Positions 2,759-20,888 are shown, counted from the first letter of the stretch. The stretch is 64,000 nucleotides of DNA from Minisyncoccota bacterium (GCA_041661265.1 JBAZUT010000003.1:15191-79190), one strand, 5' to 3'. The notes: generated by a model from the sequence alone, not told the origin. Numbers and translations: made by a program.

Positions 2759-3175
2759 TTTAATTATATATTTTCCCTGACTGATTGTATTGCTGCGAAG
2801 AATGCAGTTGTTAGTGAAAATATAGCTGCACATTGAGATCGCGATGATTTCCCATAAAGAGATCGTTAAAAAATGGCGTCAATCAAGCCGGAGGTTTTGA
2901 GCGAAATGCTACTACAATTGCGTTTTGCGGCAGGAAATATCTTTCAAGAAAGAAGCTTTGAATTTTCAGAGCAACACCATGGATCCCGCAACAACCGAAT
3001 CAATCTCAATTGTTTTCAGCCGTCACTAATCAATGCGGGATATGAAGAATAAAAAAAATATCTTCATATCCCAATCTCTCCCTTGTTTTTTTAAAACAGA
3101 TTTCTGAACAGTGGGATCAGAAATTTGCGTTAAAAAGATCAAAACGCGGTAAATTAAAAAAAAGGAGGATAAAAA

Positions 3176-3322
3176 ATGGTGTATTTTGCACAGGACGAGT
3201 CCGTAATAAACGGAATAGTGGACTCAAAAAAGAGCGAAGCCGACAAAGACAAGTATGGATTGCGCGATGAGCAATTCGATGTCGCAAGAAACACTGGCAA
3301 GGCACAAGAGTTTGGGGAATAG
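3176..3322 (+). CDS. small hydrophilic protein (48 aa), paralog of the 3513 ORF
   Basis: Strong RBS AAGGAGG 7 nt upstream. N-terminus MVYFAQDES and a G-L-R-DEQ motif are shared with the 3513 ORF. Missing from the ORF track because it is under 60 aa. Confidence 0.4.
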   Translation: MVYFAQDESVINGIVDSKKSEADKDKYGLRDEQFDVARNTGKAQEFGE

Positions 3323-3512
3323 GACTAAATATTCCCCGCTCGTATTTTAGAAAGTTTGTTTTTGTCCGCATGAAGCGAGCAGAAATAAGCTCTATAAAAG
3401 ACGGGCTTAAACAGGATGATAAGCATGCCATCACGGCGCTTATACTTTCACGACTTGGAAAAAAAGCCAAGCACGGCAAGATCCTTGAAAATAATAGAAA
3501 AGAGGGAAAAAT

Positions 3513-3635
3513 ATGGTAAGTTTTGCAAAAGAAGGTTCAAAAATAACCGCGTTTGAAATAGAAAAAGAAAGCAGAGAGCGTTTTGGAAGAAAGGATGAGC
3601 AGAACATAAACGGTAATTTTGAAAGAGGAAATTAA
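3513..3635 (+). CDS. small hydrophilic protein (40 aa), paralog of the 3176 ORF
   Basis: RBS AGAGGGA. MVSFAKEGS...GRKDEQ aligns with the 3176 ORF. The ATG overlaps the stop of an upstream 49-aa ORF (3371-3519). Confidence 0.35.
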   Translation: MVSFAKEGSKITAFEIEKESRERFGRKDEQNINGNFERGN

Positions 3636-3655
3636 ATAAACCATATAAACAATAA

Positions 3656-3692
3656 GGGAAGCGGAAACTTGACCGCTTCCCGGCCATTTTTC
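3656..3692 (+). terminator. intrinsic terminator
   Basis: Perfect 9-bp stem gggaagcgg/ccgcttccc, then 'ggccatttttc'. Confidence 0.55.
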
Positions 3693-4050
3693 ATATGATC
3701 CCGTCCATGCTTATAAGGTTTACAGGCACTGACGGGCTTAAAATGAAAAGCCCTTACACAAATAAGAGAGGTTAAACAACTAAAAAAAGTTGGGTGCTAT
3801 CCGACCAACATTCGGAAAAAGTTCCTGCCTCTCTTATACCAATCATCTGCGTGATAATTGCGAACCTATCCCTGTTTTAATGATTTAAACCGGAGATAGG
3901 CTCACAAAGCCGAGAGTTGCGGGGCATGGCCAAACATGCCATGAAGAAGTGAAAGCACTTTATTTCTTAAGGGAATTATTTTCCGACCCCAGCTCTAAAC
4001 ACTGATAACATTCCGTTATCGAACAAAATAAACAGAAAGAGGAGATAAAC

Positions 4051-4215
4051 GTGGCAAATAAAGACAAAGCAAATGAAGACACCGGTAATACCGATGAGAG
4101 AAAAAATAAGATCGAACACAACAATGAGGTTCATGAGAAAATGAAAAATAAAGATGCCGCCGGAATAATCGGCGACAAGTTCGTGGATGATCACTATGTA
4201 CCGAGGTGCTATTGA
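4051..4215 (+). CDS. small K/N/E-rich protein (54 aa, GTG start)
   Basis: RBS AAGAGGAG 8 nt upstream of GTG. Followed by the terminator at 4215-4238 (gaggaca/tgtcctc plus T7). Confidence 0.35.
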   Translation: MANKDKANEDTGNTDERKNKIEHNNEVHEKMKNKDAAGIIGDKFVDDHYVPRCY

Positions 4216-4242
4216 GGACAAAATGTCCTCATTTTTTTATGC

Positions 4243-4270
4243 TTGACATTATTATAAAATGTATTATACT
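4243..4270 (+). promoter_or_regulatory. sigma70-like promoter for the leader and LeuA/CimA-family gene
   Basis: TTGACA(4243-4248)-16-TATACT(4265-4270). Confidence 0.45.
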
Positions 4271-4290
4271 GAAACAAGTTAATAAAAAAT

Positions 4291-4362
4291 ATGACCGGAA
4301 ATCATAATACAATCATCAGCATTATCATTAACCGCGGGGCTTTGTCCTGTCGGCTATTTTGA
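4291..4362 (+). CDS. putative isoleucine-rich attenuation leader peptide (23 aa: MTGNHNTIISIIINRGALSCRLF)
   Basis: Five Ile codons within six consecutive codons (atc atc agc att atc att). First ATG after an in-frame stop. Lies in the 200-nt leader of a branched-chain pathway gene. Confidence 0.4.
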   Translation: MTGNHNTIISIIINRGALSCRLF

Positions 4363-4390
4363 TGCAAAAAAAATAGCACACAAGATAAAG

Positions 4391-4416
4391 TCCCGGGAAA
4401 GCGCCCGGGATTTTAA
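4391..4416 (+). terminator. attenuator-type terminator in the leader
   Basis: Stem tcccggg/cccggga followed by 'ttttaaatt', about 30 nt after the leader stop and about 50 nt before the structural gene RBS. Confidence 0.4.
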
Positions 4417-4468
4417 ATTATCAAGAAATAAAAATAAATATCAGAACAAAAAAAGGAGGAATAGAACA

Positions 4469-5974
4469 TTGACATTTAGAAAAGAAATAAAAATTCTGGA
4501 CACAACGCTTAGAGACGGAGAACAGACTCCGGGAATATCATTCAGCAAGGAAAGCAAGATGGCCATTGCTGAAAATCTTGATCTGTTGGGAGTCGATGTC
4601 ATCGAGGTCGGATCTGTTATAACCTCGGAAGGCGAGCGGGAATTCGCGAAAGAGATCACTAAAAAGAAACGCGAAGGAAAAATAAAAGCCGAGCTTTGCA
4701 CATATTCCAGGATAAGGAAAGAAGATATCGACTATGCCAAAGAATGCGGTCTTGATTCCGTTCATCTTGTGGTTCCGGTTTCCGATCTGCATATAACTGA
4801 AAAGTTGAAGCAGGACAGGAAAACGGTCATGAATACGGCAATTGAAATGGTGAAGTACGCCAAATCTCTCGGGCTGACAGTCGAACTCAGCGGAGAAGAC
4901 GCTTCGCGCGCGGATATGGTATTCCTGAAGGAATTATATAATGCGGGAATAGACGCAGGCGCAGACAGGCTGTGTTTCTGCGATACTGTCGGTATTCTGA
5001 CTCCGGAAAGGACATACGAGATATTTCTTGAGCTTTCAAAGCTTCGCGCCCCGATCAGTATACATTGCCATAATGATTTCGGAATGGCAACGGCTAATAC
5101 TGTCGCGGCACTCCGGGCTGGAGCCGCACAGGCCCACGTAACGATCAACGGGATCGGAGAGCGCGCAGGAAACACTTCTCTTGAAGAGGTTGTAATGACT
5201 CTCTATTCTTTATATAAGAAAGAGACGAATATAAAGACGAGAAACCTGTATAAATCCTCAAGGCTTGTCAGCAGGCTTAGCGGGATACCCGTTGCTCTCA
5301 ATAAGGCGATAGTCGGCGGAAATTCGTTCACGCATGAAGCGGGAATACACGTGCATGGCCTGAAGGCGAACACTGCGACATACGAGCCGATCACGCCGGA
5401 GCTTGTCGGACGCGAAAGAAGGATCCTTCTTGGAAAGCATGCTGGCAGAGCATCTGTCGAACTCGCAATGAGGGAACTTGGACTTACCGCGGATGACAAG
5501 CAGATAAATGAGATAACAAAGCGGGTAAAGGAGGTTGGAGACAAAGGCAAGCGCGTAACTGATGCCGATTTCGAAAAGATCGCCGAAGTGGTGCTCGGCA
5601 TATACAAAGAAGCAAAAGTCAAGCTCGAAGAACTGACGGTCGTTTCCGGGAATACAGTGATGCCGACGGCGTCGATCAAGATCCGCGTGAACGGAAAGCA
5701 GATCGTCGAGGCCGGAGTCGGCACAGGTCCCGTAGATGCGGCAAGAAATGCATTGGAAAAGGCTCTGAGTGCGATCGGAGACATCCGGCTTGAGGAATAT
5801 CATGTGGATGCCATCGAAGGCGGCACTAATGCGTTGGTCGAGGTCTGGGTGAAACTCAGCAAAGACGGAAAAACCATAACGGCGAAAGGCGCCAGGACGG
5901 ATATTATCATGGCTTCAGTCGAAGCGATGCTGGAAGGCATAAACCGCCTTTTGAACGGCAAGAATAAAGAATAA
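4469..5974 (+). CDS. 2-isopropylmalate synthase / (R)-citramalate synthase family (LeuA/CimA), TTG start
   Basis: HMGL-like N-terminus 'ILDTTLRDGEQTPG' and 'HCHNDFGMATANTVAALRAGA', plus a C-terminal LeuA-dimerisation-like region. RBS AGGAGG. The Ile-rich leader favours CimA. Confidence 0.8.
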   Translation: MTFRKEIKILDTTLRDGEQTPGISFSKESKMAIAENLDLLGVDVIEVGSVITSEGEREFAKEITKKKREGKIKAELCTYSRIRKEDIDYAKECGLDSVHLVVPVSDLHITEKLKQDRKTVMNTAIEMVKYAKSLGLTVELSGEDASRADMVFLKELYNAGIDAGADRLCFCDTVGILTPERTYEIFLELSKLRAPISIHCHNDFGMATANTVAALRAGAAQAHVTINGIGERAGNTSLEEVVMTLYSLYKKETNIKTRNLYKSSRLVSRLSGIPVALNKAIVGGNSFTHEAGIHVHGLKANTATYEPITPELVGRERRILLGKHAGRASVELAMRELGLTADDKQINEITKRVKEVGDKGKRVTDADFEKIAEVVLGIYKEAKVKLEELTVVSGNTVMPTASIKIRVNGKQIVEAGVGTGPVDAARNALEKALSAIGDIRLEEYHVDAIEGGTNALVEVWVKLSKDGKTITAKGARTDIIMASVEAMLEGINRLLNGKNKE

Positions 5975-6062
5975 TAAAGAAATAGAGAGCTTAAACGTAA
6001 GCTCCTTTTTTATTTTCTCAAAAAGTGATATTCTTAGTGTGTGAATAATTAATCATAAAAAT

Positions 6063-7211
6063 ATGGAATTTTCCGATAGGGCGAAACAGATGAAGGGTTC
6101 GGCAACTTTGTTTTGGGATATGAAGGTGAAAGAGGCGATGAAGCTGGATGCAAGCGTCATAAATCTTACTATCGGCCAGCCCGATTTCGATACTCCGGAA
6201 TTTCTTTCGCAGGCGATAAGGGCGGTTTCAGGCAAGACAGGCGTGAACCGATATGCGAATACGCAGGGAGAGCCGGAGCTGAGAAAGATATTAGCCGATA
6301 TATTGAAACAAAAGAAGGACGTGGAATACGATGAAAGCGAGATTATCTGGACGAGCTCCAAGGAGGCCATATTTCTGGCTGTCTCGGTTCTTGTCGGAAA
6401 AGGCGATGAGGTGATCTTGCTGAGTCCATGCTGGCCGACCTATGGCGAAGTTGTGAATTATTGCGACGGCAAGGCTGTGTACGTCGGGACTGACCGGAAT
6501 TTTCATCCTGTTGCGGAAGAAATAGAAAAAGCCGTGAACGAAAGAACGAAAGTGATAATCATCAACAGTCCGAATAATCCGTCGGGCGCGGTATATGGGG
6601 AACAAGAGATCGCCAAGATCGCCAAGATCGCGAAGGATCACGATCTTATTGTGATCTCTGATGAAGTTTACAGCAGCATTTTGTTTGATGGCGGGAAGCA
6701 TATTTCGATCGCAAGACTTGAGGGAATGAAGGAGAGAACGATAATCATCGAGGGATTCAGCAAAGGCCTTTCGGTTCCGGGTTTCAGGGCGGGCTATGCG
6801 GCGGGAGCAAAGGAAATTATCGGGAAAATAAGGGACCTTAAGAGCAATATCTCCGGCAACAGCGATTCGCTTATGCAGTATGCCATAATTGATTCGCTTT
6901 CAAACGGCCTGGAAGCTTATTTTGAATTTGAAAAAAAGCTCAAGGAGTCTTTTGAGAAGAGAAGGAATTTTTTCATTTCACATCTCAGCATACCGGGATC
7001 GATCGCGGCGCAGGGAGCATTCTATCTGTTCGCTCCGATCCCATCGAAAGTGTCGGGTTCAATGGAGTTTTGCGGTACAATGCTGGAGAAGAAGATCGGC
7101 ATCACGCCGGGCATATTCTTTCAGAAAGAAGGATATGCCAGAATCTCGTTCGCCGTTAAAGAGGAAAAACTTAAAATTGCGGCTGATATATTGCAAAATG
7201 AGTACAGATAG
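6063..7211 (+). CDS. class I/II PLP-dependent aminotransferase (aspartate/aromatic aminotransferase-like)
   Basis: 'INSPNNPSGAVY' and the PLP-lysine motif 'FSKGLSVPGFRAGY'. Confidence 0.75.
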   Translation: MEFSDRAKQMKGSATLFWDMKVKEAMKLDASVINLTIGQPDFDTPEFLSQAIRAVSGKTGVNRYANTQGEPELRKILADILKQKKDVEYDESEIIWTSSKEAIFLAVSVLVGKGDEVILLSPCWPTYGEVVNYCDGKAVYVGTDRNFHPVAEEIEKAVNERTKVIIINSPNNPSGAVYGEQEIAKIAKIAKDHDLIVISDEVYSSILFDGGKHISIARLEGMKERTIIIEGFSKGLSVPGFRAGYAAGAKEIIGKIRDLKSNISGNSDSLMQYAIIDSLSNGLEAYFEFEKKLKESFEKRRNFFISHLSIPGSIAAQGAFYLFAPIPSKVSGSMEFCGTMLEKKIGITPGIFFQKEGYARISFAVKEEKLKIAADILQNEYR

Positions 7212-7266
7212 AGCAGTTTTGCCGGGTGCTATTGACACGCGATTTCAGTCATGGTAATCTGAACTC

Positions 7267-7416
7267 AGTAAATAATAATCGTTATATGATAACACTGAAA
7301 AACCAAGCAATCTGTTGTTGTTGCGCTTTCTAAGAAGGCTGGTTTTATAGTGTTATGTAAATTATAATAAGATTTAGATGATACTGTGAAGCTGGTCTTT
7401 TTGGACCGGTTTTTTA
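7267..7416 (+). ncRNA. candidate small RNA, copy C of the paralogous family (about 150 nt)
   Basis: Promoter TTGACA(7232-7237)-17-TAATCT. Core 'ctttctaagaaggctggttttatagtgttatg' is homologous to copy B 'ccttccaataagataggtcgttttgtgatgag'. Terminator ggtct/ggacc plus T6 at 7394-7415. Confidence 0.45.
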
Positions 7417-7447
7417 GTTGTGTACATTGAAAAAGAGGTGAACATAC

Positions 7448-7567
7448 ATGCAGGAAGATAATGATAAGATCAATAAAAACAAAAATAAACAGGAGAATGA
7501 AGACGGATCAAAAAAAGATCTGAGAAAAAGAAAAAGGGGTTCGATCGCAGGTCCCGGCGGATGCTAG
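7448..7567 (+). CDS. small K-rich peptide (39 aa), speculative
   Basis: RBS AGAGGTG, then MQEDNDKINKNKNKQENEDGSKKDLRKRKRGSIAGPGGC. Composition resembles the 4051 ORF. Confidence 0.2.
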   Translation: MQEDNDKINKNKNKQENEDGSKKDLRKRKRGSIAGPGGC

Positions 7568-7596
7568 GACCGCTGAATCCGTCGAAAGAAACGTTT

Positions 7597-7713
7597 GCCG
7601 AGGTGGCCGAGAAGGATAGGCGGACTTCGTCTTGCTGAAAAGCCAGACTATGTCCCGCCAAAGGCAGAAGACAGCAGATCTTCAAAACACAGGTTCGAAT
7701 CCTGTCCTTGGCT
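7597..7713 (+). other. tRNA-like element, non-canonical (117 nt). Canonical 3' half, Leu-like 5' half, about 45-nt insertion between them
   Basis: Exact T-arm acagg-TTCGAAT-cctgt (7689-7705). The 3' acceptor strand ccttggc pairs with gccgagg at 7597-7603, allowing one G.U. 'tg' (U8, G9) and a D-arm gcc-gagaaGGata-ggc follow, like tRNA-Leu 'GCCGAGGTGG'. A stem-loop gaaga-cagcaga-tcttc (7667-7683) sits five nt before the T-arm. Confidence 0.35.
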
Positions 7714-7760
7714 TTCGAATTATTATTCAGAAAAAATAAAAAACAAAGGAGAAGATAAAA

Positions 7761-8435
7761 GTGGACGAAAATAAAAACAAGATCATATCTGTTCTCAACA
7801 GCCGCGGTGTAAGAAGAGAACAGCTCGACAGTGAAACGTTAAAAGACATCGAAAACATAATTTCCGCATGCGGAACAGAACCGATCAAGCTGGTCGGATA
7901 TTGGGGGGTCGGTGAAAAGCAAGAACCGACCGAGATAGACCGCAAAGCCCTAGATAAATTATCCGATATAATGAAGATGACCGACGATCGGATCAAAGTG
8001 CATCTGATATTGGCGGATAAGCATGGCGAGTTCAATGGCTATGAAAATGATATTTATCTCAATAAGATATCTTCAATAGCCGGAGAAAGGAATATCAGTA
8101 CCGCATTTCTGAGCGCGATATATCATGAAGTGGGCCTGGATGCCGCGGATCTTACAAATGTAAGCGATGACATCTGGAATAAATTTCCGGAATGTTACAG
8201 GTGTATTATCGAGAAAAGAGCGGGAATACATCAAAAGAAATGCGAAGCATCCGAAGATGCGAAAAGATATCTGCACATGACGCAGGTTGAAAAACAGAAA
8301 ATCGGAGCAGTTTATCCGAACTGCATATGGTTCACATATGGAGACATCAAGAACCTGAAGGATCTTTTTCCCAGGCCGGTAATTTCGATCTGGCCGATCA
8401 AAAGAGGGAAATCGGTACTGCCATGGTTCAGCTAG
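7761..8435 (+). CDS. hypothetical protein (224 aa, GTG start)
   Basis: RBS AAGGAG. No recognisable family. Followed by the terminator gggtgag/ctcaccc plus T6 at 8437-8470. Confidence 0.5.
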   Translation: MDENKNKIISVLNSRGVRREQLDSETLKDIENIISACGTEPIKLVGYWGVGEKQEPTEIDRKALDKLSDIMKMTDDRIKVHLILADKHGEFNGYENDIYLNKISSIAGERNISTAFLSAIYHEVGLDAADLTNVSDDIWNKFPECYRCIIEKRAGIHQKKCEASEDAKRYLHMTQVEKQKIGAVYPNCIWFTYGDIKNLKDLFPRPVISIWPIKRGKSVLPWFS

Positions 8436-8539
8436 CGGGTGAGATATAAACCAAACTCACCCTTTTTTATTTTAAATTATCTGATATAATTAACGTAATG
8501 CATGAACGAGAATGCTTATAAATCAACTAATTCAATTTT

Positions 8540-9355
8540 ATGGAAACTGCAGTAAGCAAATCTGTCTGGTTAAATGAACTTACCTGGCAGGACGTCGCGG
8601 AATATTTAAAACGGGACGATATTCTTATTATTCCGGTAGGTTCGACCGAACAGCATGGTCCAGCCGCTCCGCTGGGTCTTGATACATACGCCGCGATCGC
8701 ATTGGCCGATGATGCGGCCAAGAGAGCGAATGTCCTCTCTGCGCCGCCTTTGTGGTTCGGAGATTCATCTCATCATTCTAAATTTCCCGGCACAATATCC
8801 ATAAGGAGCGAAACATTGACTGAACTTATGAAAGATATTCTCAGGAACGTCATAAAAAATGGATTTAAGAAAGTGTTGATCATCAATGGCCACAAGAGCG
8901 CCAATCTGCCGGGCTTGATCAGCGCTGCGAAATATGTCCATGAGTATGATCATCCGAAAAGTTTTATTGCGGTGATCGATCCGATGAAGATCGCAAAAGG
9001 GATCGCAGCAAAAACTAAGGAAGAACCGGAGCATCATGCAGGGGAGCTGGAAACATCGCATCTTATGTATAAGTATCCGAATCTTATAGATAAGGAAAAG
9101 CTTTCCAAGAATAATATCGATGCGGAAAAGATTTTTTCCAAGTTTTTCAGTTTCGATCTGTTTGGCGGAGGAAAGGATGTCATAGATATCGTATGGAATT
9201 CCAGCGAGCAGCGCGAGTTCACGCCTTCGGGCGCATTTTCCGCTTCAAATAGGGCCTCTGCCGAAAAAGGAAAAGCGTATCATGATTACATGGTCGATAA
9301 TATCGTTGAATTTATTGGATGGCTTAGAAAGTATAATGGGCCTATCGGCAGATAG
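8540..9355 (+). CDS. creatininase-family amidohydrolase
   Basis: 'IIPVGSTEQHGP' and the 'LIINGHKS' fold signature. Confidence 0.65.
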   Translation: METAVSKSVWLNELTWQDVAEYLKRDDILIIPVGSTEQHGPAAPLGLDTYAAIALADDAAKRANVLSAPPLWFGDSSHHSKFPGTISIRSETLTELMKDILRNVIKNGFKKVLIINGHKSANLPGLISAAKYVHEYDHPKSFIAVIDPMKIAKGIAAKTKEEPEHHAGELETSHLMYKYPNLIDKEKLSKNNIDAEKIFSKFFSFDLFGGGKDVIDIVWNSSEQREFTPSGAFSASNRASAEKGKAYHDYMVDNIVEFIGWLRKYNGPIGR

Positions 9356-9388
9356 CAGTTTTATATGGATCAGGATTAATGAAACACA

Positions 9389-10330
9389 ATGAAATCAATA
9401 GAGATCGTACGAAAACTCGCGAGTCTTTCTCCGAGGCAGTTCGCCGGAGAGAAGCTAGCGAAAAATTATATAATCAAGATGCTCAAAGGGAATTCTGTGG
9501 ATTACAGTCTGCAGAACTTTGAAGTTGCCGTTCCGTCGTATGCGAAATATCATCTGAAGGCGGACGGGAAGAGCATAAAATGCATACCGACATCATTGGT
9601 CGGAGGAACGGTAGGGGAAGGATGCGATATAATAAGCTCATTGGATGCTTCATATGAAGGCGGTACATGCGGTAATATAAATTATAATCCTCATTCAGAC
9701 GGCATCTCACTGGCTAATTTCTATGATTCGCCGTCCTTTGCGGTTTCGAGGAGGGATGTGAAATTTATCAAAAATGCCGCAAAGATCGAGGGGCTGATAA
9801 AGATCAAAAAGCGAAAATATACATCATGCAATATTCTTGCGGGAAACAGGATCGATTCCAAAAATATATTTTTCGCCCACTACGACTGCTTTTTTGAAGG
9901 AGCGGTCGACAATGCCAGCGGCGTGGCAGTTTGTATGAGCTTGGTTAAAAATAATAAAAATATACTGAAAGATAATCTTATTGTTTTTTGCGGTGCGGAA
10001 GAGCTTTCGTACGATAGGCCTTTCTATTGGGGAAAGTGTTTCAGAGCTTTTGAGTCTAGGAACAGGAGGATAATGAAAAACGCAAAGAAGGTTATAATCG
10101 TAGATTGCGTCGGAACGGATAATGCCGAGGTTAGGAACGACGAGGAAGCGGTGTCTTTGTACTTTGCAAAGAAAAATAATGATAAAAAGAAGGTACTCGT
10201 GGTAACGTCGGTAGAAAGAAGACCTGAAAAATTTATGAGCGTGTATCATAGCAAGGCGGATCGTGCGAGCTGCGTTCGTGAGAAATATCTGCAGAACGCT
10301 TTCGAAAAATGTTTAAGCATAATCGAATAA
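9389..10330 (+). CDS. M28/M20-type zinc peptidase-like protein
   Basis: 'FFAHYDC', then 'GAVDNASGVA', then 'GAEELS' (HxD...D...EE metal-ligand pattern). Confidence 0.5.
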   Translation: MKSIEIVRKLASLSPRQFAGEKLAKNYIIKMLKGNSVDYSLQNFEVAVPSYAKYHLKADGKSIKCIPTSLVGGTVGEGCDIISSLDASYEGGTCGNINYNPHSDGISLANFYDSPSFAVSRRDVKFIKNAAKIEGLIKIKKRKYTSCNILAGNRIDSKNIFFAHYDCFFEGAVDNASGVAVCMSLVKNNKNILKDNLIVFCGAEELSYDRPFYWGKCFRAFESRNRRIMKNAKKVIIVDCVGTDNAEVRNDEEAVSLYFAKKNNDKKKVLVVTSVERRPEKFMSVYHSKADRASCVREKYLQNAFEKCLSIIE

Positions 10331-10331
10331 T

Positions 10332-11435
10332 ATGATCGGGGAACTGCAAAAATTGATAAGATTTAAGACGGTTGTCGGAAATCACAAAGAGAACGGCAAG
10401 GCTTTGAAGTGGGTCAGATCCGAATTAGCCGGTCTGGATGTCGATGTGAGGGAATTCGAGTCGGATGGATATCGATCGATCGTCATTACGACGCAAAAGA
10501 CTATGAAGCCTAAAGTTTTTCTGGCGGCTCACATGGATGTTGCCAAGGCATCAAATGATCTGTTTATTCCCAGGATATCCGGCGATAAATTGTTTGGACG
10601 AGGCGCATATGATATGAAATTCGCGATCGCTTGTTATTTGAGGTTATTGAAGGAGTTGAAGAAAGATCTTTTGAAATATGATCTGGGAATCATGATCACA
10701 TCAGATGAAGAGTGTGGAGGGAAGAACGGGGCCGGATATCTTCTTGGTAAAGGATACGGATGCGACGCTGTTGTGCTTCCCGATGGAAGCGAGAATTGGA
10801 AAATTGAAAAAGCTTCGAAAGGCGTGTGGTGTTTTGTCGTAAAAAGCTATGGAAAGTCGGCTCATCCGTCTATGCCGTGGAAAGGTATAAATGCGATCGA
10901 AGCATTGCTGGATTATTTCAGCGAGCTGCAGAAACCGTTCAAAACGGAACCGTGCGGAGATCCGCTGCATATCCATTCAACGATCGATATAAATGAATTC
11001 AATACGGGCCGTACGGGGGATAATCTTCCGGATTATGCGGAAGCAATGGCCGATATCTTCTTCATAAGCGGGAAAGAATATGAAAAGATCGTCAGAATGG
11101 AAAAAAGCATCAGAAAGAAATATTCCGGAATAAAGCTCATGACGACTATTTATAATCCGAGCGTAAGGATAAATATAAAAAACAGATTTGCGGATGAATT
11201 TTACCGGATCGCGCGGAATCTGTATGGCATAAGGAAAGAGGCGATGTTTACCCATGGAACATCCGACGCTCATTATTTTGTGGAAAAGAATATATCGGTT
11301 ATTGAAACGCGGCCAAAGGGCGGTGATTTTCATGGCGATGGAGAATGGATAGATCTTGTTGATCTGGAAAGGTTCTATCAGGTCCTGAAAGAATTTACGG
11401 TAAGAATGTCCGCGGTGGATAATGAGAAGATTTGA
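10332..11435 (+). CDS. M20 family peptidase (ArgE/DapE-like deacylase)
   Basis: 'AAHMDVA', 'GRGAYDMK', 'SDEECGG'. Confidence 0.65.
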   Translation: MIGELQKLIRFKTVVGNHKENGKALKWVRSELAGLDVDVREFESDGYRSIVITTQKTMKPKVFLAAHMDVAKASNDLFIPRISGDKLFGRGAYDMKFAIACYLRLLKELKKDLLKYDLGIMITSDEECGGKNGAGYLLGKGYGCDAVVLPDGSENWKIEKASKGVWCFVVKSYGKSAHPSMPWKGINAIEALLDYFSELQKPFKTEPCGDPLHIHSTIDINEFNTGRTGDNLPDYAEAMADIFFISGKEYEKIVRMEKSIRKKYSGIKLMTTIYNPSVRINIKNRFADEFYRIARNLYGIRKEAMFTHGTSDAHYFVEKNISVIETRPKGGDFHGDGEWIDLVDLERFYQVLKEFTVRMSAVDNEKI

Positions 11436-11487
11436 CAATATATTAAAATAGATATAAATTGACAATATAGAACTATATATATGAAAA

Positions 11488-11603
11488 TACATTCAATAAA
11501 CAGCTATTTCTTTTATTTTAGCCTTCCAATAAGATAGGTCGTTTTGTGATGAGGATAAAATAAAGAAAAAAGCAAAATGGCCTATCGGGGGCTGTTTTTT
11601 GTT
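11488..11603 (+). ncRNA. candidate small RNA, copy B of the paralogous family (about 115 nt)
   Basis: Two TTGACA -35 elements at 11432 and 11459. Core 'atttcttttattttagccttccaataagataggtcgttttgtgatgagg' is about 75% identical to copy D. The 3' hairpin is followed by T6 at 11595-11600. Confidence 0.5.
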
Positions 11604-11706
11604 ATGACATTGAAAACATATTATCGGTTTTAATACGGCATAAAACCGATAAAGTGGGTTCAAATGGACCTTGATAATCAAATAATACAAAAAAGGAGGA
11701 AAGAAG

Positions 11707-11988
11707 ATGATAGCGGGAAAGCCCAAAGATGAGATCGATGAGATGATCTATGCACTTCGCGAGATCTGCCCGGACGTCGGAATAATAAGAAAAAATGGAA
11801 AAATTATTATGACGGGAAATGGGATCATGCGCGTAAAAAAAACAGTGAAGATATTATCCGGAATAGAGAGGATCGAATCCATCAATAAATATGGCACACG
11901 GTGCATACTTGAGATGAAGGGCGACGAGGCGATCATAATGAATGTTGCCAGCAATGAACGAAGTGAGGAATTATGCGTTATAGCGTAA
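11707..11988 (+). CDS. hypothetical small protein (93 aa)
   Basis: Strong RBS AAGGAGG. First gene of a 4-gene small-protein cassette. Confidence 0.5.
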   Translation: MIAGKPKDEIDEMIYALREICPDVGIIRKNGKIIMTGNGIMRVKKTVKILSGIERIESINKYGTRCILEMKGDEAIIMNVASNERSEELCVIA

Positions 11989-12278
11989 TGGATATTGAAG
12001 ACGAAACATCTGAGCTGGTGGCCATGAAGAGGTCTGGAAGCGATGATTCGGCAGACATTCTCTGCTGGAGGATCGGCCAGATGCTGCCGGAAATCGCTAT
12101 CGGCCCAATGACAAGAAATGACAGGATAATGTCGGTGTTACAGAAAGTTGAAACGGCGATATGCTTCTTGTCGGACTCAAAAAACAAAAAAAATCTTGAG
12201 ATCGTGATCCGGAATAAAAAAGAAGAAATAAAAAAATCGGAGAGCCAAAGGGAAAATTTGGCTCTCCCCAACTTTTAA
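11973..12278 (+). CDS. hypothetical small protein (101 aa)
   Basis: Start overlaps the end of the upstream gene by 16 nt, which suggests translational coupling. Confidence 0.45.
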   Translation: MRYSVMDIEDETSELVAMKRSGSDDSADILCWRIGQMLPEIAIGPMTRNDRIMSVLQKVETAICFLSDSKNKKNLEIVIRNKKEEIKKSESQRENLALPNF

Positions 12279-12412
12279 TTTGATATGTTCAGCCATGGAC
12301 ACGGTTTTGCATCAGACGAAAGCTTTTAAAAAAGTTTCTGCCTGCGGCAAAAGCGGCTTGCGGGATAAGGCGATTGTCTTATTGAATTGAAAAAATAAAA
12401 GGAGGAAGAAAA

Positions 12413-12715
12413 TTGAAGGAAAAATGGAGCATAAGCGAAGAAGAAAAGATGATAATAGGTATGATAAGTGTTTATCGAAAGCGGATGAAGAAGTCAAAAA
12501 CGACCGCTAAAATGCTTTATTGCAGAGACCAGATGGATCGAAAAAAGGCTGAACTTGGCAGGCTGAGATCAAGGATCAGAGCGGCCGACTCGGAGAATGA
12601 GAACAGAAAAAGAAACAGGAATTATCCTCCGATGACGGATACGCCGGACCACTGTTCGACCTGCGACCAGAAGCTGAATGATACGTGGAATTGTCTCGGC
12701 TATCCCTCTGCATAA
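12413..12715 (+). CDS. hypothetical basic protein with Cys-rich C-terminus (100 aa, TTG start or internal ATG)
   Basis: RBS AGGAGG. Basic KRMKKSK stretch and C-terminal 'DHCSTCDQKLNDTWNC'. Confidence 0.4.
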   Translation: MKEKWSISEEEKMIIGMISVYRKRMKKSKTTAKMLYCRDQMDRKKAELGRLRSRIRAADSENENRKRNRNYPPMTDTPDHCSTCDQKLNDTWNCLGYPSA

Positions 12716-12746
12716 TGAATGTGACGATCGAAGAAGGTGAGTCAAA

Positions 12747-13091
12747 ATGGACAATATGGAATTAATGCCGCAATGGGCGAAAAATAGAGCTCCGTATTGG
12801 ATAAATGGCGATGAATGTCCCGCGTGCAACGGAGCGAACTATAAGATCGAGGTGATCGAGTGCAATGAATACCTGAAAACAGTCGAGATTCGCGCATTGT
12901 GCGGCGATTGTGGGCACCGGGAAAATAAATGTATATCGGAATGTTGGACGGAATGGGAGATCTGCCCCAGATGCAAAAAGAAAAGCGATGTAGCGGAAAA
13001 CAGTATTCCCGGAGGAGGGAATATCGTGCTGGCAGTGTCTTTCATATCCCGATGTTCCCATTGCGGATTTGAAGAATCATTCGGCTATTGA
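12747..13091 (+). CDS. zinc-ribbon-rich protein (114 aa, at least four CxxC pairs)
   Basis: CPACN, CGDCGH, CPRCKK and CSHCG motifs. RBS GAAGGTGAG. Confidence 0.5.
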   Translation: MDNMELMPQWAKNRAPYWINGDECPACNGANYKIEVIECNEYLKTVEIRALCGDCGHRENKCISECWTEWEICPRCKKKSDVAENSIPGGGNIVLAVSFISRCSHCGFEESFGY

Positions 13092-13555
13092 AAACAAAGA
13101 CGTGGTACAAAAGGCAGGCTTCAGGCTTGCCTTATTTATTATAACAAAAACCACCGGCGTTAGCCGGTGTGTGCGTTTAGAGCGATAGCTCTTGTGTAAC
13201 TGTAATATAGTAATTGCCATATTATCATTCTAGGTCGTGTCATCCTGAACTTGTTTCAGGATCTTCGTTACATTTCGTAAGAGTGATGTAGTAAAGCAAT
13301 AACGAAATAAAACGAGGATTCCGGATCCCTCCGGAGGCGGGCAGGCAAGTCCGGAATGACAAACAGGCAGATAATCGATTAAGACAGATCAGAAACTACA
13401 TAAAAAACCAAGATGTAAACAGAGTTGAATTAGCACAACAGACGTTATGGAAAAAACAGGCATAGCCTGCCAAGCAGATACCCTCGGCGTCAAGCCGGGG
13501 GTATGTTCATTATTTTCGACATTGACACATGCCTGCATTGTGCTATAATGGCAAA

Positions 13556-13683
13556 GTAAGCTCAAATATCATGAAATACGGTATAAATAACAATTTCTTC
13601 TTTTTTAGCTATAACTTCCTTAAAAGATAGGTTATTTTGTGATAATTCAGATGAAAATAGCCTGTCGAAGAGGCTGTTTTTTA
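13556..13683 (+). ncRNA. candidate small RNA, copy D of the paralogous family (about 128 nt)
   Basis: Consensus promoter TTGACA(13522-13527)-16-TATAAT(13544-13549). Core 'atttcttcttttttagctataacttccttaaaagataggttattttgtgataa'. Terminator agcct/aggct plus T6 at 13659-13682. Confidence 0.55.
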
Positions 13684-13854
13684 ATGATATAAAGAACCAT
13701 TCAGTTTTCCACGCGATGGAAGATTGAATGGTAAGTTAAATCTTGCCAATGTGCGCCTCGGTGGCTGAAAAGAGCGCCGGCATGAAACACCGGAATATGC
13801 GGATCAAAATTCCGCCCGAGGCAAAAAAATTAAAAAAATACAGGAGGAACCGAA

Positions 13855-14541
13855 TTGATACAAGGTTTGAAGATTTTCAATGACCCGGAAAAGCTTCCTC
13901 AGGGCCCTAACGAGCAAGGATTGGCATTGCGGTCGGAACTCGTAAAGAAAATAACATGTTTTGTTTTGGGTCCCATGGGAACCAATATGGAACAGGCCTG
14001 CGAGCAATGGATTCGGGAGATGGGAATCGAAAACAAAACAGAAATTGTTCTTTGTTCGACCCCGGAAGAGTCGATCGAAAAAGCAAGAAGTGTTACCAGT
14101 GAGGGGCATGTTGCAACATTTTGGACATGCGCAGTCTATAATTGCCTGTGCAATGTTTTTTTCCAAAACCCGGATACGCTCACGTTCTTTGCGGAGAAGG
14201 TGATGATGCTGGATGAAATGCAGCTTGCGACGCGGCGTGAAAAGATACATGAGATCAGAGACGGGATCCTTCCCGATTCGTGGATCATTGCATCGCACCC
14301 CTCTCCGGCGCCCCTGCTCAATGAAGTAAAGTGCAGCGTCAAGCTGACTACAAGCAATGCCAAGGCGGCAGAATTGTGCAGTGCGCTCGAGGCGGATGCG
14401 TGCATTACGACAGAAAGCGCAAGAAAGCTGAATGGACTCGAAACACTCCATGTTTTTGGAAGCCCGAAAATGGTTTTTTTTGCGGGGATCACGACTCACG
14501 GAGTGAGGGTTGTTTCAAAGGCATATAATGAGGCGAAATAA
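13855..14541 (+). CDS. prephenate dehydratase-like (PDT-fold) protein without ACT domain. Possibly a prephenate decarboxylase-like paralog. TTG start
   Basis: RBS AGGAGG. 'CFVLGPMGTNMEQA' is a PDT N-terminal motif and 'IASHPSPAPL' follows. The TRF-type motif is degenerate. Confidence 0.45.
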   Translation: MIQGLKIFNDPEKLPQGPNEQGLALRSELVKKITCFVLGPMGTNMEQACEQWIREMGIENKTEIVLCSTPEESIEKARSVTSEGHVATFWTCAVYNCLCNVFFQNPDTLTFFAEKVMMLDEMQLATRREKIHEIRDGILPDSWIIASHPSPAPLLNEVKCSVKLTTSNAKAAELCSALEADACITTESARKLNGLETLHVFGSPKMVFFAGITTHGVRVVSKAYNEAK

Positions 14542-14641: not shown

Positions 14642-16156
14642 ATGAAAATTGCTATTATCGGCGCGAACGGAGATATGGGAAAATTCCTGACCAGATTTCT
14701 GTCGCTACTGGGAGAGGTCAAGCCCATATCCAGGAATGTCTCGACTAAAGAAGACTGGCGCGAGGCATGGACTGCGGACGTGATCTGGCTTAGCATTCCG
14801 CGGGATGCGATCGATGGCCTGCTCGAGGGGAAGAAATTAGACAAGAGGCAGCTTATGGTCGATATCTGTTCGATCAAGAGAAATTTATCAGAGGTTATAA
14901 AGAAAACGGGAGCATCACATTTGTCTTTGCATCCTTTGCATGGTCCAAATATTCCCTTGAACGGTCAAAGATGGGCCGTCATAGACGGTTCAAGAAGGAG
15001 TGAACGGAATCAAAACGCCAAGAGAACTCTGGAGTTTCTGAAAGATCAGGGCATACAGCTTTTGGGCGCCAAATCCGAAGACTATCATGATTTTATGCTG
15101 GGATTAACTCTAAGTGTGCCGGAGCTGCTTACTGTCGTGATCGAGGAGCTGAAAAACGAATATATCAAAAATTGCAAAGAGATCAAGCCGACGAGGAGCG
15201 AGATGAATAAATGGTCTGTCCCGGCGTCCAATGCAATGTATGGGGCTTGTCATCATGTGATAAACAGCACGGCTTACTGGCTCAGGAAGGAGATTCTTTG
15301 TAATGCGCACAAGGACCTCTTGAAAAGCTCCAGGAAGGCTTTCTTAAGGCTTTCAAAATTAACCGATCAGGATATAAAGAAAAAATTCAAAGAACAGGAA
15401 AGAGATATAAAAACATTGTCGCCGGAAGAAAGGATCAAGATCAGATTGTGGATCGAGAATTGGTTCTCGGATGCGACGAAGTCCATATTTATGGAAAAGG
15501 ACTATTATAAGACAAAACCGGAGATCGCCATACAGTTCCAGGAGAACATTTCGGAAATATTTCCGGCTTCGACCGTGAAGCTTAGGGTCGGGATCCATGG
15601 CATAAAGGGGTGCTTTACGCATGAATCTATTCTTCGTTTTTGCGAAGAGGCCAAGGTCGATGAGACAAAACTGGATCTCAAGTTTCTTGTAACTGCCGAG
15701 AATGTTCTGCGCGAGCTGGATGAAGGCAAGATCGACAGGGGAATATTTGCGATGGCAAATTCCGGATCGGGGGCCTATGTTACAAGCATGGATCCCATGG
15801 GAAAATACACGTATAAGGTCATGGCTGTCTATGGGATGAAGATCATGCAGTGTCTTCTCTCGTATCCAAGCGAAAAAATAGAAAATATAAATGAAGTTTT
15901 CGGCCATCCGCAGGCCGTCAGCCAGTGCAAAAGAACCCTTGCAGAAAAATACCCATATCTGAAAATAACCTACGGAAAAGACGACGACGATACCGCTTTA
16001 TGCGCAAAGAGGATAGCGGAAGGCGAGCTTCCGAGAACGACAGCGACACTTGCGTCTCAGGTTGCGGCTAAGCTTTATAATTTGAACATATTGTCTTACA
16101 ATATGCACCATGATCCTTTCAATACGACAACTTTCTTGATTGTAAAAAAGCGGTAA
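14642..16156 (+). CDS. fused prephenate dehydrogenase (TyrA) and prephenate dehydratase (PDT) protein
   Basis: N-terminus 'MKIAIIGANGDMGKF' (NAD fold) with 'SLHPLHGP'. C-terminal PDT domain 'GIHGIKGCFTHE...FGHPQAVSQC...NTTTFLIV'. Confidence 0.7.
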   Translation: MKIAIIGANGDMGKFLTRFLSLLGEVKPISRNVSTKEDWREAWTADVIWLSIPRDAIDGLLEGKKLDKRQLMVDICSIKRNLSEVIKKTGASHLSLHPLHGPNIPLNGQRWAVIDGSRRSERNQNAKRTLEFLKDQGIQLLGAKSEDYHDFMLGLTLSVPELLTVVIEELKNEYIKNCKEIKPTRSEMNKWSVPASNAMYGACHHVINSTAYWLRKEILCNAHKDLLKSSRKAFLRLSKLTDQDIKKKFKEQERDIKTLSPEERIKIRLWIENWFSDATKSIFMEKDYYKTKPEIAIQFQENISEIFPASTVKLRVGIHGIKGCFTHESILRFCEEAKVDETKLDLKFLVTAENVLRELDEGKIDRGIFAMANSGSGAYVTSMDPMGKYTYKVMAVYGMKIMQCLLSYPSEKIENINEVFGHPQAVSQCKRTLAEKYPYLKITYGKDDDDTALCAKRIAEGELPRTTATLASQVAAKLYNLNILSYNMHHDPFNTTTFLIVKKR

Positions 16157-16223: not shown

Positions 16224-16790
16224 TTATTTTTCGACAGCGAGAAAACTCGTGAAATTGAATTTCAGGTCCTGAACGCCCTTTTCCATGATCATGAGCCCAA
16301 AAAGGGTGGCGCAGCTTTCGGGAGCAAGTATTGCAGTTTCATTGCCAAGCTTTCCTTCCGAAAGATCCCTTGCCGCCTTGGCCGTATCTTCCGTTTCTTT
16401 GAGATCTGCTTTTGACCATTGTTTTTTCAGATACATTTTGCATTGTTTCAGCGCCTGATCGTGAGACGCGATGCTTTTGATGTCATCCTTGGAAACGCCT
16501 TTTTTTGTCAGCAGGCAATGTATCACCGGGATCTCGAATATGTCCTTGATCTTGAAAATATATCTGCTCATTGCATATATGCTTTCGATAACTACTCCAC
16601 CATTCGAATTCTCGATTGGAAAAATGCCAAGGTCGATCTTCTTGTTCTCGAGCGAATTAAGGACTTTCTCGACCGAAATCAGATACACCAGTTCGTACTC
16701 GGTTATTTGATTCTTGCGGCAATATTCCACTGCGGCTTGCTCCGAAAAACTGCCTTCATCTCCCGAAATGCCGATCTTTATTTTTTCCAT
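16224..16790 (-). CDS. prephenate dehydratase (PDT domain only, 188 aa)
   Basis: 'IGISGDEGSFSEQAA', 'FPIENSNGGVV', 'SHDQALKQC', 'NFTSFLAV'. Confidence 0.7.
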   Translation of the reverse strand: MEKIKIGISGDEGSFSEQAAVEYCRKNQITEYELVYLISVEKVLNSLENKKIDLGIFPIENSNGGVVIESIYAMSRYIFKIKDIFEIPVIHCLLTKKGVSKDDIKSIASHDQALKQCKMYLKKQWSKADLKETEDTAKAARDLSEGKLGNETAILAPESCATLFGLMIMEKGVQDLKFNFTSFLAVEK

Positions 16791-19292: not shown

Positions 19293-19390
19293 AGAAAAAA
19301 AATTAAAATGAAAAAATAAAAGTGAAAAATGTTAATGATTTTCATGAAACAGAAATTCAATTGACATTTTTCATTTTGATTTTTAAAATT

Positions 19391-20485
19391 TTAATTTGCA
19401 ATAATATATCTCATCCCGCCAATATTTTTGACTTTACCTTTAATTTCCATCAGTGTCAATAAACTTGAAAGCGAGTTCATATTCATTTTAATGTTTTTTG
19501 AGAGCTGGTCAATGTGAGTGGCATTATCACGAGCCAGATTTTCCAGTATCAGTTTCTCGTCATCATTATCGGGAATTATATCTTTCAATTTCGATGCGTC
19601 AAGCGAAGTTTCAATGTCGAGCTCCTCAAGTATATCGCGGGGACGAGAAGCCAGTTTCGCTCCGAGCTTGATCAAATTGTTCGTACCGATCGAATTGCCG
19701 GAAAAAATACTGCCCGGAACCGCAAAAACATCTCTATTCTGTTCAAGTGAAAATTTGGCCGTTATAAGAGATCCGGAAGATTCAGATGCTTCGATAACAA
19801 GCACTCCTTTCGAGAGTCCGCTTATGATCCTGTTCCTTGCGGGAAAATGCTGTTTAAGCGGCGGGGTACCTATTGGGTATTCACTGATGAGGGCTCCAGA
19901 GCCGGAAATATCGCGCGCCAGCTTGCGATTGCTCAGGGGGTATATGCTTTTTTCGTCCAAGCCTCCTCCGAGAACTGCGATCGTACGTTTTTTTTGCTTC
20001 ACGCATTCAAGGTGAGCAACAGTATCTGCGCCGAAAGCAAGTCCGCTCACCAGAGTCAATCCGGATGCTGAAAGTTCCTTTGAGAGAAATGATGCGGCCT
20101 GAGTTCCATATGGCGAAAGCTTTCTTGATCCGACAACGGCAAGGCAGATGTCGCTATTGCTCAGAGAACCTTTTAGATATATCATGGCCGGACTGCTTGA
20201 TATTTCCAAAAGAAGATTTGGAAAGCGTTCATCCTTAAACGTCACCAGTTCTATGTTCTCTTCGGCAAGTTTTTCGTATTCTTTTTCCGGAGAGATATTC
20301 TTTTTGAAATCGATCATCCTCAGAACCGTTTTATTTTCGATGCCCGACGCCAGAAGATCATCAATGCCGGATCTCCAAGCATTTTCAAGAGATTTAAAAT
20401 GCGCCAGAAGCATTTTTAGTTTGGCCGGACCCATGAACGGCATGAGATTAAATGCGTTGTAATATTGACGCTCAGATATTGACAT
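19391..20485 (-). CDS. dprA: DNA processing protein DprA (Smf)
   Basis: Rossmann-like core 'LAVVGSRKLSPYG...VSGLAFGADTVAH...GLSKGVLVIEA'. The annotated start has no SD. Confidence 0.8.
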   Translation of the reverse strand: MSISERQYYNAFNLMPFMGPAKLKMLLAHFKSLENAWRSGIDDLLASGIENKTVLRMIDFKKNISPEKEYEKLAEENIELVTFKDERFPNLLLEISSSPAMIYLKGSLSNSDICLAVVGSRKLSPYGTQAASFLSKELSASGLTLVSGLAFGADTVAHLECVKQKKRTIAVLGGGLDEKSIYPLSNRKLARDISGSGALISEYPIGTPPLKQHFPARNRIISGLSKGVLVIEASESSGSLITAKFSLEQNRDVFAVPGSIFSGNSIGTNNLIKLGAKLASRPRDILEELDIETSLDASKLKDIIPDNDDEKLILENLARDNATHIDQLSKNIKMNMNSLSSLLTLMEIKGKVKNIGGMRYIIAN

Positions 20486-20513: not shown

Positions 20514-20888
20514 TTAATAAAAATCTGGAGGTTTTTTATTTTGCTGCATTTACAATCGGAAGCAACTAGGATTTTATGGGCGGCATTCTGTCTATGAGCT
20601 GTGAAAGCACAATAATCCCTCCTAATATTGTGCGAGTAGCTTAAGTCTAGGCATGTATTTCTTGTAAATACAGGCCTTACGCTTATAGGCAGTATGCCGG
20701 ATGTAAAAGATGGCAATGCCATGCACTTTTCTGTCTATGAGCGGCTATGATGCAACAATACCTCCTATAGTTGCATAACGGCCTAATGTTCAGGTCTTTA
20801 TTTCTTGTAAATACAGATCTTACGCTTATAGGCAGTAAAGTTTATGGCAGAAAACAGAAAAAGAAAGGGTCTCAGATCCTTTCTTTTA
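20514..20888 (+). ncRNA. candidate regulatory RNA of about 370 nt carrying the tandem repeats (strand uncertain)
   Basis: Bounded by the promoter at 20479-20507 and the bidirectional terminator at 20859-20888 (agaaagg/cctttct plus T). Loops read CCUCC on + and AGGAGG on -. Confidence 0.35.
20586..20871. repeat. two tandem direct repeats of about 143 nt (units start at 20586 and 20729)
   Basis: 'ttctgtctatgagc...cttgtaaatacag..cttacgcttataggcagta' is conserved in both units. Each unit holds a hairpin with CCTCC in the loop (20607-20633 and 20751-20775) and a gtattt/aaatac hairpin. Confidence 0.75.

Follow-up and report, generated by a model that had tools for sequence, protein, structure and literature searches.

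Probable phenylalanine/tyrosine leader-peptide attenuators in a Candidatus Paceibacterota genome, one of them preceding four orphan small genes

The window analyzed here is a 64-kb stretch, read on one strand, of a Candidatus Paceibacterota metagenome-assembled genome (MAG). Within it, two similar elements, B (11432-11600) and D (13522-13682), have the same orientation, with a separation of about 2.09 kb. An earlier inspection of the same DNA (the sequence-only reading) had described them as sRNA-like elements framing a module of four small genes. The direct orientation was confirmed, and so was the notion that the elements are regulatory RNA, but they are probably neither small RNA (sRNA) genes nor recombination repeats. 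Instead, B and D are probably paralogous, cis-acting, ribosome-mediated leader-peptide transcription attenuators, with charged tRNA-Phe and tRNA-Tyr as their signals. Nor do direct repeats frame a module, as each element serves a separate operon as its 5′ leader: B leads into genes 1 to 4, and D leads into prephenate dehydratase (PDT)-like genes. Comparisons were made with the close relatives L003 to L007, which are metagenome contigs, and with L002, a distant Patescibacteria MAG and the sole relative that turned up in the genome collection.

When aligned, B and D were identical in 76% of columns, and the longest block common to both was 20 nt with two differences. Exact copies of the AAGATAGGTNNTTTTGTGAT block occurred in the 64 kb only within B and D, a third match having 3 mismatches (chance expectation, 0.13). 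Each element contained a promoter, a short open reading frame (ORF), and two mutually exclusive hairpins, as follows.

11432..11460, plus strand: promoter of element B, with −35 TTGACA at 11432-11437, a 17-nt spacer, and −10 TAAATT at 11455-11460 (10/12 consensus positions).
11481..11537, plus strand: leader peptide ORF of B, encoding MKIHSINSYFFYFSLPIR and a stop; 18 residues, Phe/Tyr-rich.
11533..11586, plus strand: antiterminator of B, in which 11533-11546 (GAUAGGUCGUUUUG, holding the leader UAG stop) pairs with 11573-11586 (CAAAAUGGCCUAUC).
11574..11600, plus strand: intrinsic terminator of B, a 10-pair stem followed by TTTTTT at 11595-11600, its 5′ arm common with the antiterminator.
11621..11652, plus strand: hairpin between the B terminator and gene 1, conserved in the leader.
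13522..13549, plus strand: promoter of element D, with TTGACA, a 16-nt spacer, and TATAAT with an upstream TG (12/12 consensus positions).
13571..13630, plus strand: leader peptide ORF of D, encoding MKYGINNNFFFFSYNFLKR and a stop; 19 residues with the run FFFFSYNF.
13626..13682, plus strand: antiterminator and terminator of D, in which 13626-13638 pairs with 13654-13666; terminator at 13659-13675, T-run at 13677-13682.

Both predicted promoters are of the sigma-70 type. The TTGACA of the B promoter was kept in L004, L005, and L007, whereas a second TTGACA at 11459 was not. The regulatory codons of B, TAT TTC TTT TAT TTT at 11505-11519, specify Tyr-Phe-Phe-Tyr-Phe, and the B leader peptide was identical in sequence in three relatives. 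The L003 counterpart of the D leader peptide was MKYGISNNFFFFSYNFPKR, with a synonymous Phe codon change. The regulatory amino acid run of both leaders was kept in relatives, the run of the L002 orthologue being FFFTFFF. Moreover, the B leader, from promoter to ribosome-binding site, was 95% identical among relatives whose synonymous sites had diverged by 35 to 57%, and thus B is constrained more strongly than synonymous sites. An exact-word metagenome scan with the B/D block AAGATAGGTNNTTTTGTGMTRA returned 10 matches, 9 of which were chance occurrences with neither a leader ORF nor a terminator and 1 of which was the known L005 contig.

The 20-nt block conserved between B and D is the 5′ strand of the antiterminator, and the leader UAG stop lies inside that strand in both elements (11533-11546 in B and 13626-13638 in D). 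On the other side, CAAAAUGGCCUAUC at 11573-11586 doubles as the 5′ arm and loop of the terminator in B. Folding was simulated for the RNA left free behind a ribosome placed at different positions. With the ribosome stalled on the Phe/Tyr codons, the antiterminator was the best structure (−19.5 kcal/mol for B and −15.5 kcal/mol for D), and with the ribosome at the stop codon, only the terminator formed (−9.7 kcal/mol for B and −12.8 kcal/mol for D). In the ribosome-free fold of B, the Phe/Tyr codons paired with an A-rich spacer and the terminator formed, as in the classical four-segment attenuator with 1:2 and 3:4 pairing. When B, D, and their orthologues were compared (five sequences), pairing was possible at 97% of antiterminator pairs and 100% of terminator pairs; in the antiterminator, a C-G pair in one element was a U-A pair in the other, and further substitutions were compatible with wobble pairing. 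In the hairpin at 11621-11652, substitutions in L004 and L005 made U-A pairs into U-G pairs, changes tolerated only on the plus-strand RNA.

We infer that leader translation governs termination in both elements. Each would be transcribed from its own sigma-70 promoter and would encode an 18- to 19-residue peptide with a run of Phe/Tyr codons. Where Phe/Tyr-tRNA is plentiful, the ribosome would reach the UAG codon and cover the 5′ strand of the antiterminator, such that the terminator hairpin and its U-run would form and transcription would end after about 120 to 130 nt. Where Phe/Tyr-tRNA is scarce, the ribosome would stall 14 to 20 nt upstream, on YFFYF in B or on FFFF in D, and the antiterminator strand, left free, would pair with the 5′ arm of the terminator and allow RNA polymerase to read through. 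D would thereby control PDT-like genes, the expected target. B would have arisen by duplication of the same attenuator and would control a lineage-restricted operon of four small Phe-poor proteins, to be made upon aromatic amino acid starvation. The hairpin-dense stretch lying after gene 4 and before D would mostly be a separate insertion of about 375 nt that stands outside the control system.

The genes downstream of D and a structured element in its leader were assigned as follows.

13755..13823, plus strand: tRNA-Phe-like cloverleaf in the D leader, between the D terminator and the PDT-like gene, 31 nt 5′ of the start codon.
13855-14541, plus strand: PDT-like gene (Pfam/NCBIfam), predicted to be controlled by D.
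14642-16156, plus strand: prephenate dehydrogenase-N/PDT fusion (Pfam/NCBIfam), predicted to be controlled by D.

The same two genes stand behind a Phe leader in L002, where the PDT-like protein is 58% identical. The L002 leader, unrelated in sequence, has MQIKLNNNFFFTFFFNRFLRSSVV as its peptide and a strong terminator after it, and L002 has no four-gene cassette. The cloverleaf at 13755-13823 has the anticodon loop AUGAAAC with anticodon GAA (Phe), cognate to the FFFF leader, and is the minimum-free-energy fold; it scored 43.7 bits with the Rfam tRNA model, above the gathering score of 29. As a genuine tRNA it failed, as ARAGORN returned nothing at default settings and tRNA-Phe(gaa) only at a 90% threshold, the D-loop is AAAA without GG, the T-loop is UCAAAAU without UUC, and there is no CCA. 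The cloverleaf was kept in L003 (35 bits) and was absent from L002. The minimum-free-energy fold also contained a long-range helix around the tRNA-like element and the PDT-like start codon; this helix was rejected because two of its pairs are broken in L003. Two neighboring features of the region were also recorded. The strongest PDT match, at 148.6 bits, came from a third PDT gene (16224-16790, minus strand), which encodes 188 aa without an ACT domain and is convergent with the operon predicted to be controlled by D. In L003, a gene for an rve-family integrase of an insertion sequence (IS) element (1945-2886) follows the PDT-like gene, at the place where the window has the fusion gene.

Three further leaders of the same layout were found, making five predicted leader attenuators (Val, Ile, Cys, Phe/Tyr, and Phe) within 14 kb of the window.

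2623-2682, plus strand: Val leader, MTKKVGHVVVVAIKNLLVR, followed by a terminator (unit 2543-2760) and then orphan small ORFs.
4291-4362, plus strand: Ile leader, beginning MTGNHNTIISIIINRG (in full, MTGNHNTIISIIINRGALSCRLF, with the run TIISIII); promoter at 4243, terminator at about 4385-4413.
7286-7333, plus strand: Cys leader, MITLKNQAICCCCAF, followed by a terminator (unit 7233-7410).

The Ile leader lies directly 5′ of a gene of the isopropylmalate/citramalate synthase family (IPMS/CimA; 4469-5974) and an aminotransferase gene, and its Ile codons suggest that the former is a citramalate synthase of the Ile pathway. Because the Phe leader is matched to PDT and the Ile leader to IPMS/CimA, a regulatory reading of these elements is hard to avoid. 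After the Cys leader come an unassigned 224-aa gene, one gene of the creatininase family, and two genes for peptidases (M28 and M20).

Other features accompany these leaders. For about 1.4 kb after the Val attenuator (2873-4215, plus strand) there are only small ORFs of 40 to 59 aa, several with good ribosome-binding sites; none matched Pfam, and two begin MV(Y/S)FA. A tRNA-like element with a canonical T arm and a 47-nt insertion follows the Cys attenuator (7597-7713, plus strand), and its anticodon is GCA (Cys) in both the Rfam and the ARAGORN parses, making it a second instance of a leader with a cognate tRNA mimic. Between the Cys terminator and this element lies a 39-aa ORF with a ribosome-binding site (7448-7567, plus strand; MQEDNDKINKNKNKQENEDGSKKDLRKRKRGSIAGPGGC), which is a gene call on L001, an independent assembly of the same strain. 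All five leader ORFs (2577-13571) lack a Shine-Dalgarno sequence and have predicted 5′ untranslated regions of about 10 to 18 nt, which suggests that the five leaders are initiated in a Shine-Dalgarno-independent manner. Other short ORFs with amino acid runs (at 40818, 44653, 47587, and elsewhere) were rejected as terminator U-runs or as lying inside or overlapping genes, and a low-threshold ARAGORN call of tRNA-Arg at 84-162 (minus strand), in apparent coding sequence, was taken as a false positive.

Downstream of B, the four small ORFs seen previously were recovered at the same lengths of 93, 101, 100, and 114 aa, all on the plus strand and each with a GGAGG-type ribosome-binding site upstream. 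They correspond to WC788_02870 through WC788_02885, all annotated as hypothetical.

11707..11988, plus strand: gene 1, 93 aa, orphan, without Phe (WC788_02870; hypothetical at NCBI).
11973..12278, plus strand: gene 2, 101 aa, orphan, overlapping gene 1 by 16 nt.
12239..12267, plus strand: hairpin at the 3′ end of gene 2, GGAGAGCC...GGCUCUCC.
12413..12715, plus strand: gene 3, 100 aa, TTG start, orphan, without Phe.
12747..13091, plus strand: gene 4, 114 aa, orphan, with two tandem CxxC...CxxC zinc-ribbon-like units.
13111..13133, plus strand: intrinsic terminator of the gene 1-4 operon, with an orthologous hairpin in L003 and L006.

The four genes are under purifying selection, with ratios of nonsynonymous to synonymous substitution (dN/dS) of 0.13 to 0.22 at dS values of 0.5 to 1.1 (gene 1, 0.20 to 0.22; gene 2, 0.21; gene 3, 0.14 to 0.16; gene 4, 0.13 to 0.14), and they have the same lengths in relatives. 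The overlap of genes 1 and 2, at 11973-11988, was confirmed, and the conserved gene 2 N terminus M(R/H)YSV supports the upstream start codon. The hairpin at 12239-12267, whose outer G-C pair is A-U in L004, might act as a weak terminator or mark a site of processing. Gene 3 has a Lys/Arg-rich helical N-terminal part and a C-terminal CxxC...C. The four CxxC motifs attributed to gene 4 are present as CPAC, CGDC, CPRC, and CSHC and are invariant in its two homologues, and its match to Pfam Zn_ribbon_4 was subthreshold (E = 0.048). By inference, the products of genes 3 and 4 look like nucleic acid or protein binders. Judged from sequence comparison, genes 1 to 4 are real genes.

None of the four proteins belongs to a recognizable family, as proposed earlier, and nothing was found in Pfam, PHROGs, PADLOC, or NCBIfam. 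Their homologues were confined to a few metagenome contigs, at 63 to 85% identity. An exhaustive HMMER search with gene 3 found one true homologue only, word-indexed searches with genes 1, 2, and 4 found only close orthologues plus low-complexity matches to giant proteins, and tblastn of genes 1 and 4 against phages gave no match. Structure prediction, one of the checks proposed in the sequence-only reading, gave AlphaFold2 models of low confidence: the gene 1 model was alpha/beta with a predicted local distance difference test (pLDDT) score of 65 and found no fold match in the PDB by Foldseek (best E, 0.2), and the gene 4 model was poor (pLDDT, 55). A chorismate mutase or ACT-domain identity for genes 1 to 3 was considered because the Phe operon lacks both, and it was rejected because Pfam gave no support and L002 lacks the genes.

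The four proteins together are poor in Phe, with 5/408 residues (1.2%) compared with 4.3% in a set of 46 other window genes (binomial P = 4e-4), and Phe plus Tyr amounted to 3.9% compared with 8.0% in the other genes (P = 7e-4). Genes 1 to 3 of the relatives are likewise Phe-poor. A low Phe content fits proteins that are needed while Phe-tRNA is limiting, and it is only suggestive of such a role.

Several observations weigh against the attenuation reading as set out above. First, the B and D leader ORFs lack a Shine-Dalgarno sequence and have predicted 5′ untranslated regions of about 10 to 18 nt, whereas the structural genes have strong GGAGG sites, and thus leader translation would need Shine-Dalgarno-independent initiation. 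Second, the ribosome-free fold of D retains the antiterminator, and 1:2 pairing is not evident in D. Third, the covariation, although consistent, carries little statistical weight, as it comes from five sequences and effectively one duplication event, and 45/500 shuffles were equally good. Fourth, the Rfam Phe_leader model RF01859 matched B over its full length at 34.1 bits (E = 0.003 in a 2.6-kb search) but did not reach its gathering threshold of 55 bits, and D was not reported. Fifth, whereas D precedes PDT-family genes, B precedes genes without functional assignment, one of which, gene 4, is not Phe-poor. Finally, an internal promoter ahead of gene 1 or gene 3 is possible. Rfam scans of the region and the spacer, at gathering and at permissive thresholds, returned only the subthreshold Phe_leader match on B and the tRNA-like match. 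We conclude that B would work like the Phe_leader family but is not a member of it.

T-box riboswitches, the usual Gram-positive solution, also sense tRNA charging and choose between terminator and antiterminator on amino acid genes. B and D differ from them in having no Rfam T-box match, specifier loop, or T-box sequence and would sense through a translated ORF, and the tRNA-like structures described here are part of the mRNA itself rather than bound in trans. The closer parallel is the pheL-pheA leader of enterobacteria (RF01859; PMC3082878), in which a short ORF likewise carries successive Phe codons and the 5′ arm of the terminator can pair instead with an upstream segment, and which, like D, precedes a prephenate dehydratase gene; B aligns end to end with its Rfam model. 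There is, however, no sequence homology to speak of (34 bits compared with the gathering score of 55 bits), and the host belongs to the Patescibacteria, or Candidate Phyla Radiation (CPR). Furthermore, the B and D leaders mix Tyr and Phe codons and lack a Shine-Dalgarno sequence, B would control four orphan small proteins and no biosynthetic enzyme, and D has an extra tRNA-Phe-like cloverleaf between terminator and gene.

Leader-peptide attenuation is a textbook mechanism. Most of its documented cases are in Proteobacteria, and it has been predicted in Actinobacteria and a few Firmicutes (PMC2965389, PMC1262725). Leader-peptide attenuators were predicted in Actinobacteria (PMC1262725), and a His leader was described for bacilli in a study that names Proteobacteria and Actinobacteria, then adds bacilli, and that reports attenuator "hopping" and duplication, with paralogous copies before different genes (PMC2965389). 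The window shares with these cases the same logic, evolved in or spread to lineages beyond the Proteobacteria, and paralogous copies before different genes, and it differs in holding five attenuators in 14 kb, two of which head operons of orphan small ORFs only.

The region between gene 4 and D had been described as an internal structured RNA of the module. The spacer (13092-13520) indeed has no convincing ORF, contains the hairpins named previously (13152-13169, 13242-13262, 13318-13357, and 13478-13504), and folds far better than shuffled sequences (z = −5.3 on the plus strand and −4.3 on the minus strand). Its first hairpin (13111-13133) is the gene 4 terminator, and most of the remainder is a probable insertion lacking in two relatives rather than an integral part.

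13137..13512, strand not assigned: hairpin-rich putative insertion of about 375 nt, absent from L003 and L006; boundaries accurate to about 5 nt on either side.

In L003 and L006, no more than about 15 nt lie between the gene 4 terminator and the D promoter. The insertion has ATTAT on either side and similar GC hairpins near its ends (13152-13169 and 13478-13504). The similarity of the ends is weak, being equaled by 11 to 16 of 500 shuffles, and the ends score alike as inverted and as direct repeats, each end being itself palindromic. Assembly L001 stops 35 nt into the stretch.

The best-surviving alternative, which we nonetheless regard as rather unlikely, is that 13137-13512 is a functional noncoding RNA gene of the module and not an inserted element such as a miniature inverted-repeat transposable element (MITE) or IS remnant. 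The very stable predicted structure on both strands would suit an RNA gene, as would terminator-like hairpins on the minus strand at 13169-13152 and 13471-13455. No second copy was found in the window or, by blastn, in plasmids, which speaks against an insertion; an exact 24-mer metagenome scan also gave 0 matches and, having missed the source contig as well, carries little weight. The sequence is, however, absent from both relatives that span the junction, contains no internal consensus promoter, and matched no Rfam family over 13095-13530 even at E values up to 10. The ATTAT flanks and similar end hairpins point in the same direction, as does the break in the same-strain assembly, such as occurs at multicopy sequences. 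MITEs and IS200/IS605-derived palindrome-associated elements, which we take to be the comparison for this stretch only, resemble it in being noncoding with end hairpins, at about 375 nt, with ATTAT flanks and presence or absence between relatives; unlike them, it has no demonstrated second copy, cognate transposase, or clear terminal inverted repeat. Deletion in the relatives is a possible alternative to insertion, three lineages having been compared. We conclude that the putative insertion is lineage specific and not a conserved component of the module.

A second alternative is that genes 1 and 2 form a type II toxin-antitoxin (TA) pair, perhaps alongside control by B. The sequence-only reading had raised this idea from their overlap, and nothing beyond the 16 nt of overlap supports it. 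The pair does resemble type II TA operons in consisting of small, adjacent genes (93 and 101 aa) in overlapping frames with a narrow, patchy distribution, and the genes evolve comparatively fast, at 63 to 78% amino acid identity compared with 89% for the neighboring M20 peptidase. Against a TA pair, no toxin or antitoxin family was found in Pfam, NCBIfam, or PADLOC, no DNA-binding fold is recognizable, the gene 1 model has no PDB neighbor, and genes 1 and 2 are invariably accompanied by genes 3 and 4 within a single leader-controlled unit downstream of an amino acid attenuator. Control by a Phe/Tyr attenuator is also not known from TA modules. A TA pair is accordingly improbable.

Still less probable is a reading of B and D as small genes in their own right, encoding either sRNAs of about 120 nt that act in trans or small hydrophobic, type I toxin-like peptides, with their position upstream of operons being incidental. 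Each element does have its own strong promoter and terminator, with a transcript of about 120 to 130 nt as the default product, the peptides are hydrophobic, and an attenuated transcript could also act in trans. Independence would leave unexplained, however, that the 5′ arm of the terminator is complementary to the stop codon segment in both copies despite sequence differences, that the same layout occurs with Ile, Cys, and Val runs before other operons, with the Ile and Phe runs matching the downstream pathway, and that L002 retains the Phe run but not the sequence. Moreover, neither an antisense partner nor target complementarity was seen.

The proposal of a mobile or accessory cassette carried its own comparative check, namely, whether relatives hold the B-to-D segment as a unit or show an empty site with one repeat copy. 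The order M20 peptidase, B, genes 1 to 4, D, PDT-like gene was syntenic in the close relatives, with the repeats present: L004, L005, and L007 have the M20 peptidase, B, and genes 1 to 3, and L003 and L006 have genes 3 and 4, D, the tRNA-like element, and the PDT-like gene. A single-repeat empty site was not seen, as L002 has one Phe leader without the cassette, yet its upstream neighbors differ. The genes are thus accessory, in that homologues occur only in a handful of close relatives, but with no mobility genes and a constant synteny they are probably not mobile. The reading of B to D as a cassette prone to movement or recombination, its ends being the direct repeats B and D, has in its favor the narrow spread (2 to 3 homologues per protein among 5.8 billion clusters), the single Phe leader of cassette-free L002, and the greater closeness of B to D than of D to its L002 counterpart, but it is the least credible alternative, given that neither a gene for an integrase, transposase, or relaxase nor a target site duplication was seen within or next to the B-to-D segment, that the repeats are only about 76% alike, that attenuator function accounts for every part of each copy, that gene order is constant in the recovered close relatives, that L002 is not an empty site, and that the proteins have no match in phages or PHROGs.

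Two repeats elsewhere in the window were noted in passing. At 20586-20837 (plus strand), after a dprA-like gene, an intergenic unit of about 110 nt is tandemly duplicated at a spacing of 143 nt, with segments 74 to 84% identical. At 19299-19397, between the topoisomerase I and dprA-like genes, there is an AT-rich 38-nt inverted repeat that is 79% complementary with a 23-nt gap.

The genomes of CPR bacteria are tiny, the regulation of their genes has hardly been explored, and most amino acid biosynthesis is generally assumed to be missing from these cells. A full-text literature search found no paper joining leader-peptide attenuation or attenuators to the Patescibacteria or the Candidate Phyla Radiation, and a search on tRNA-like structures in attenuator leaders found no paper describing such a case. 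What appears new is the phylum, the duplicated Phe/Tyr attenuator on an orphan small-protein operon, and the cognate tRNA-like cloverleaves in the Phe and Cys leaders. More broadly, and quite tentatively, this Paceibacterota lineage might run a starvation regulon of leader attenuators that have been duplicated onto orphan small-protein operons (Phe/Tyr onto genes 1 to 4 and Val onto 2873-4215). The products of those operons would serve an episymbiotic CPR cell as effectors or regulators during starvation, and degenerate cognate tRNA mimics (CCCC with GCA and FFFF with GAA) would add a second, as yet undescribed layer of control or processing within the same 5′ untranslated region; we think this wider picture possible but doubtful.

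For annotation, a false lead, that of a mobile cassette or sRNA repeats, is removed, and short Phe-rich ORFs in these genomes would be read as regulatory leaders. The attenuators would also provide a functional handle on hypothetical genes, as the four proteins could be labeled as induced by Phe/Tyr limitation. If the attenuation reading of B, D, and the three other leaders is true, five attenuators in 14 kb would mean that CPR cells monitor the charging of individual tRNAs.

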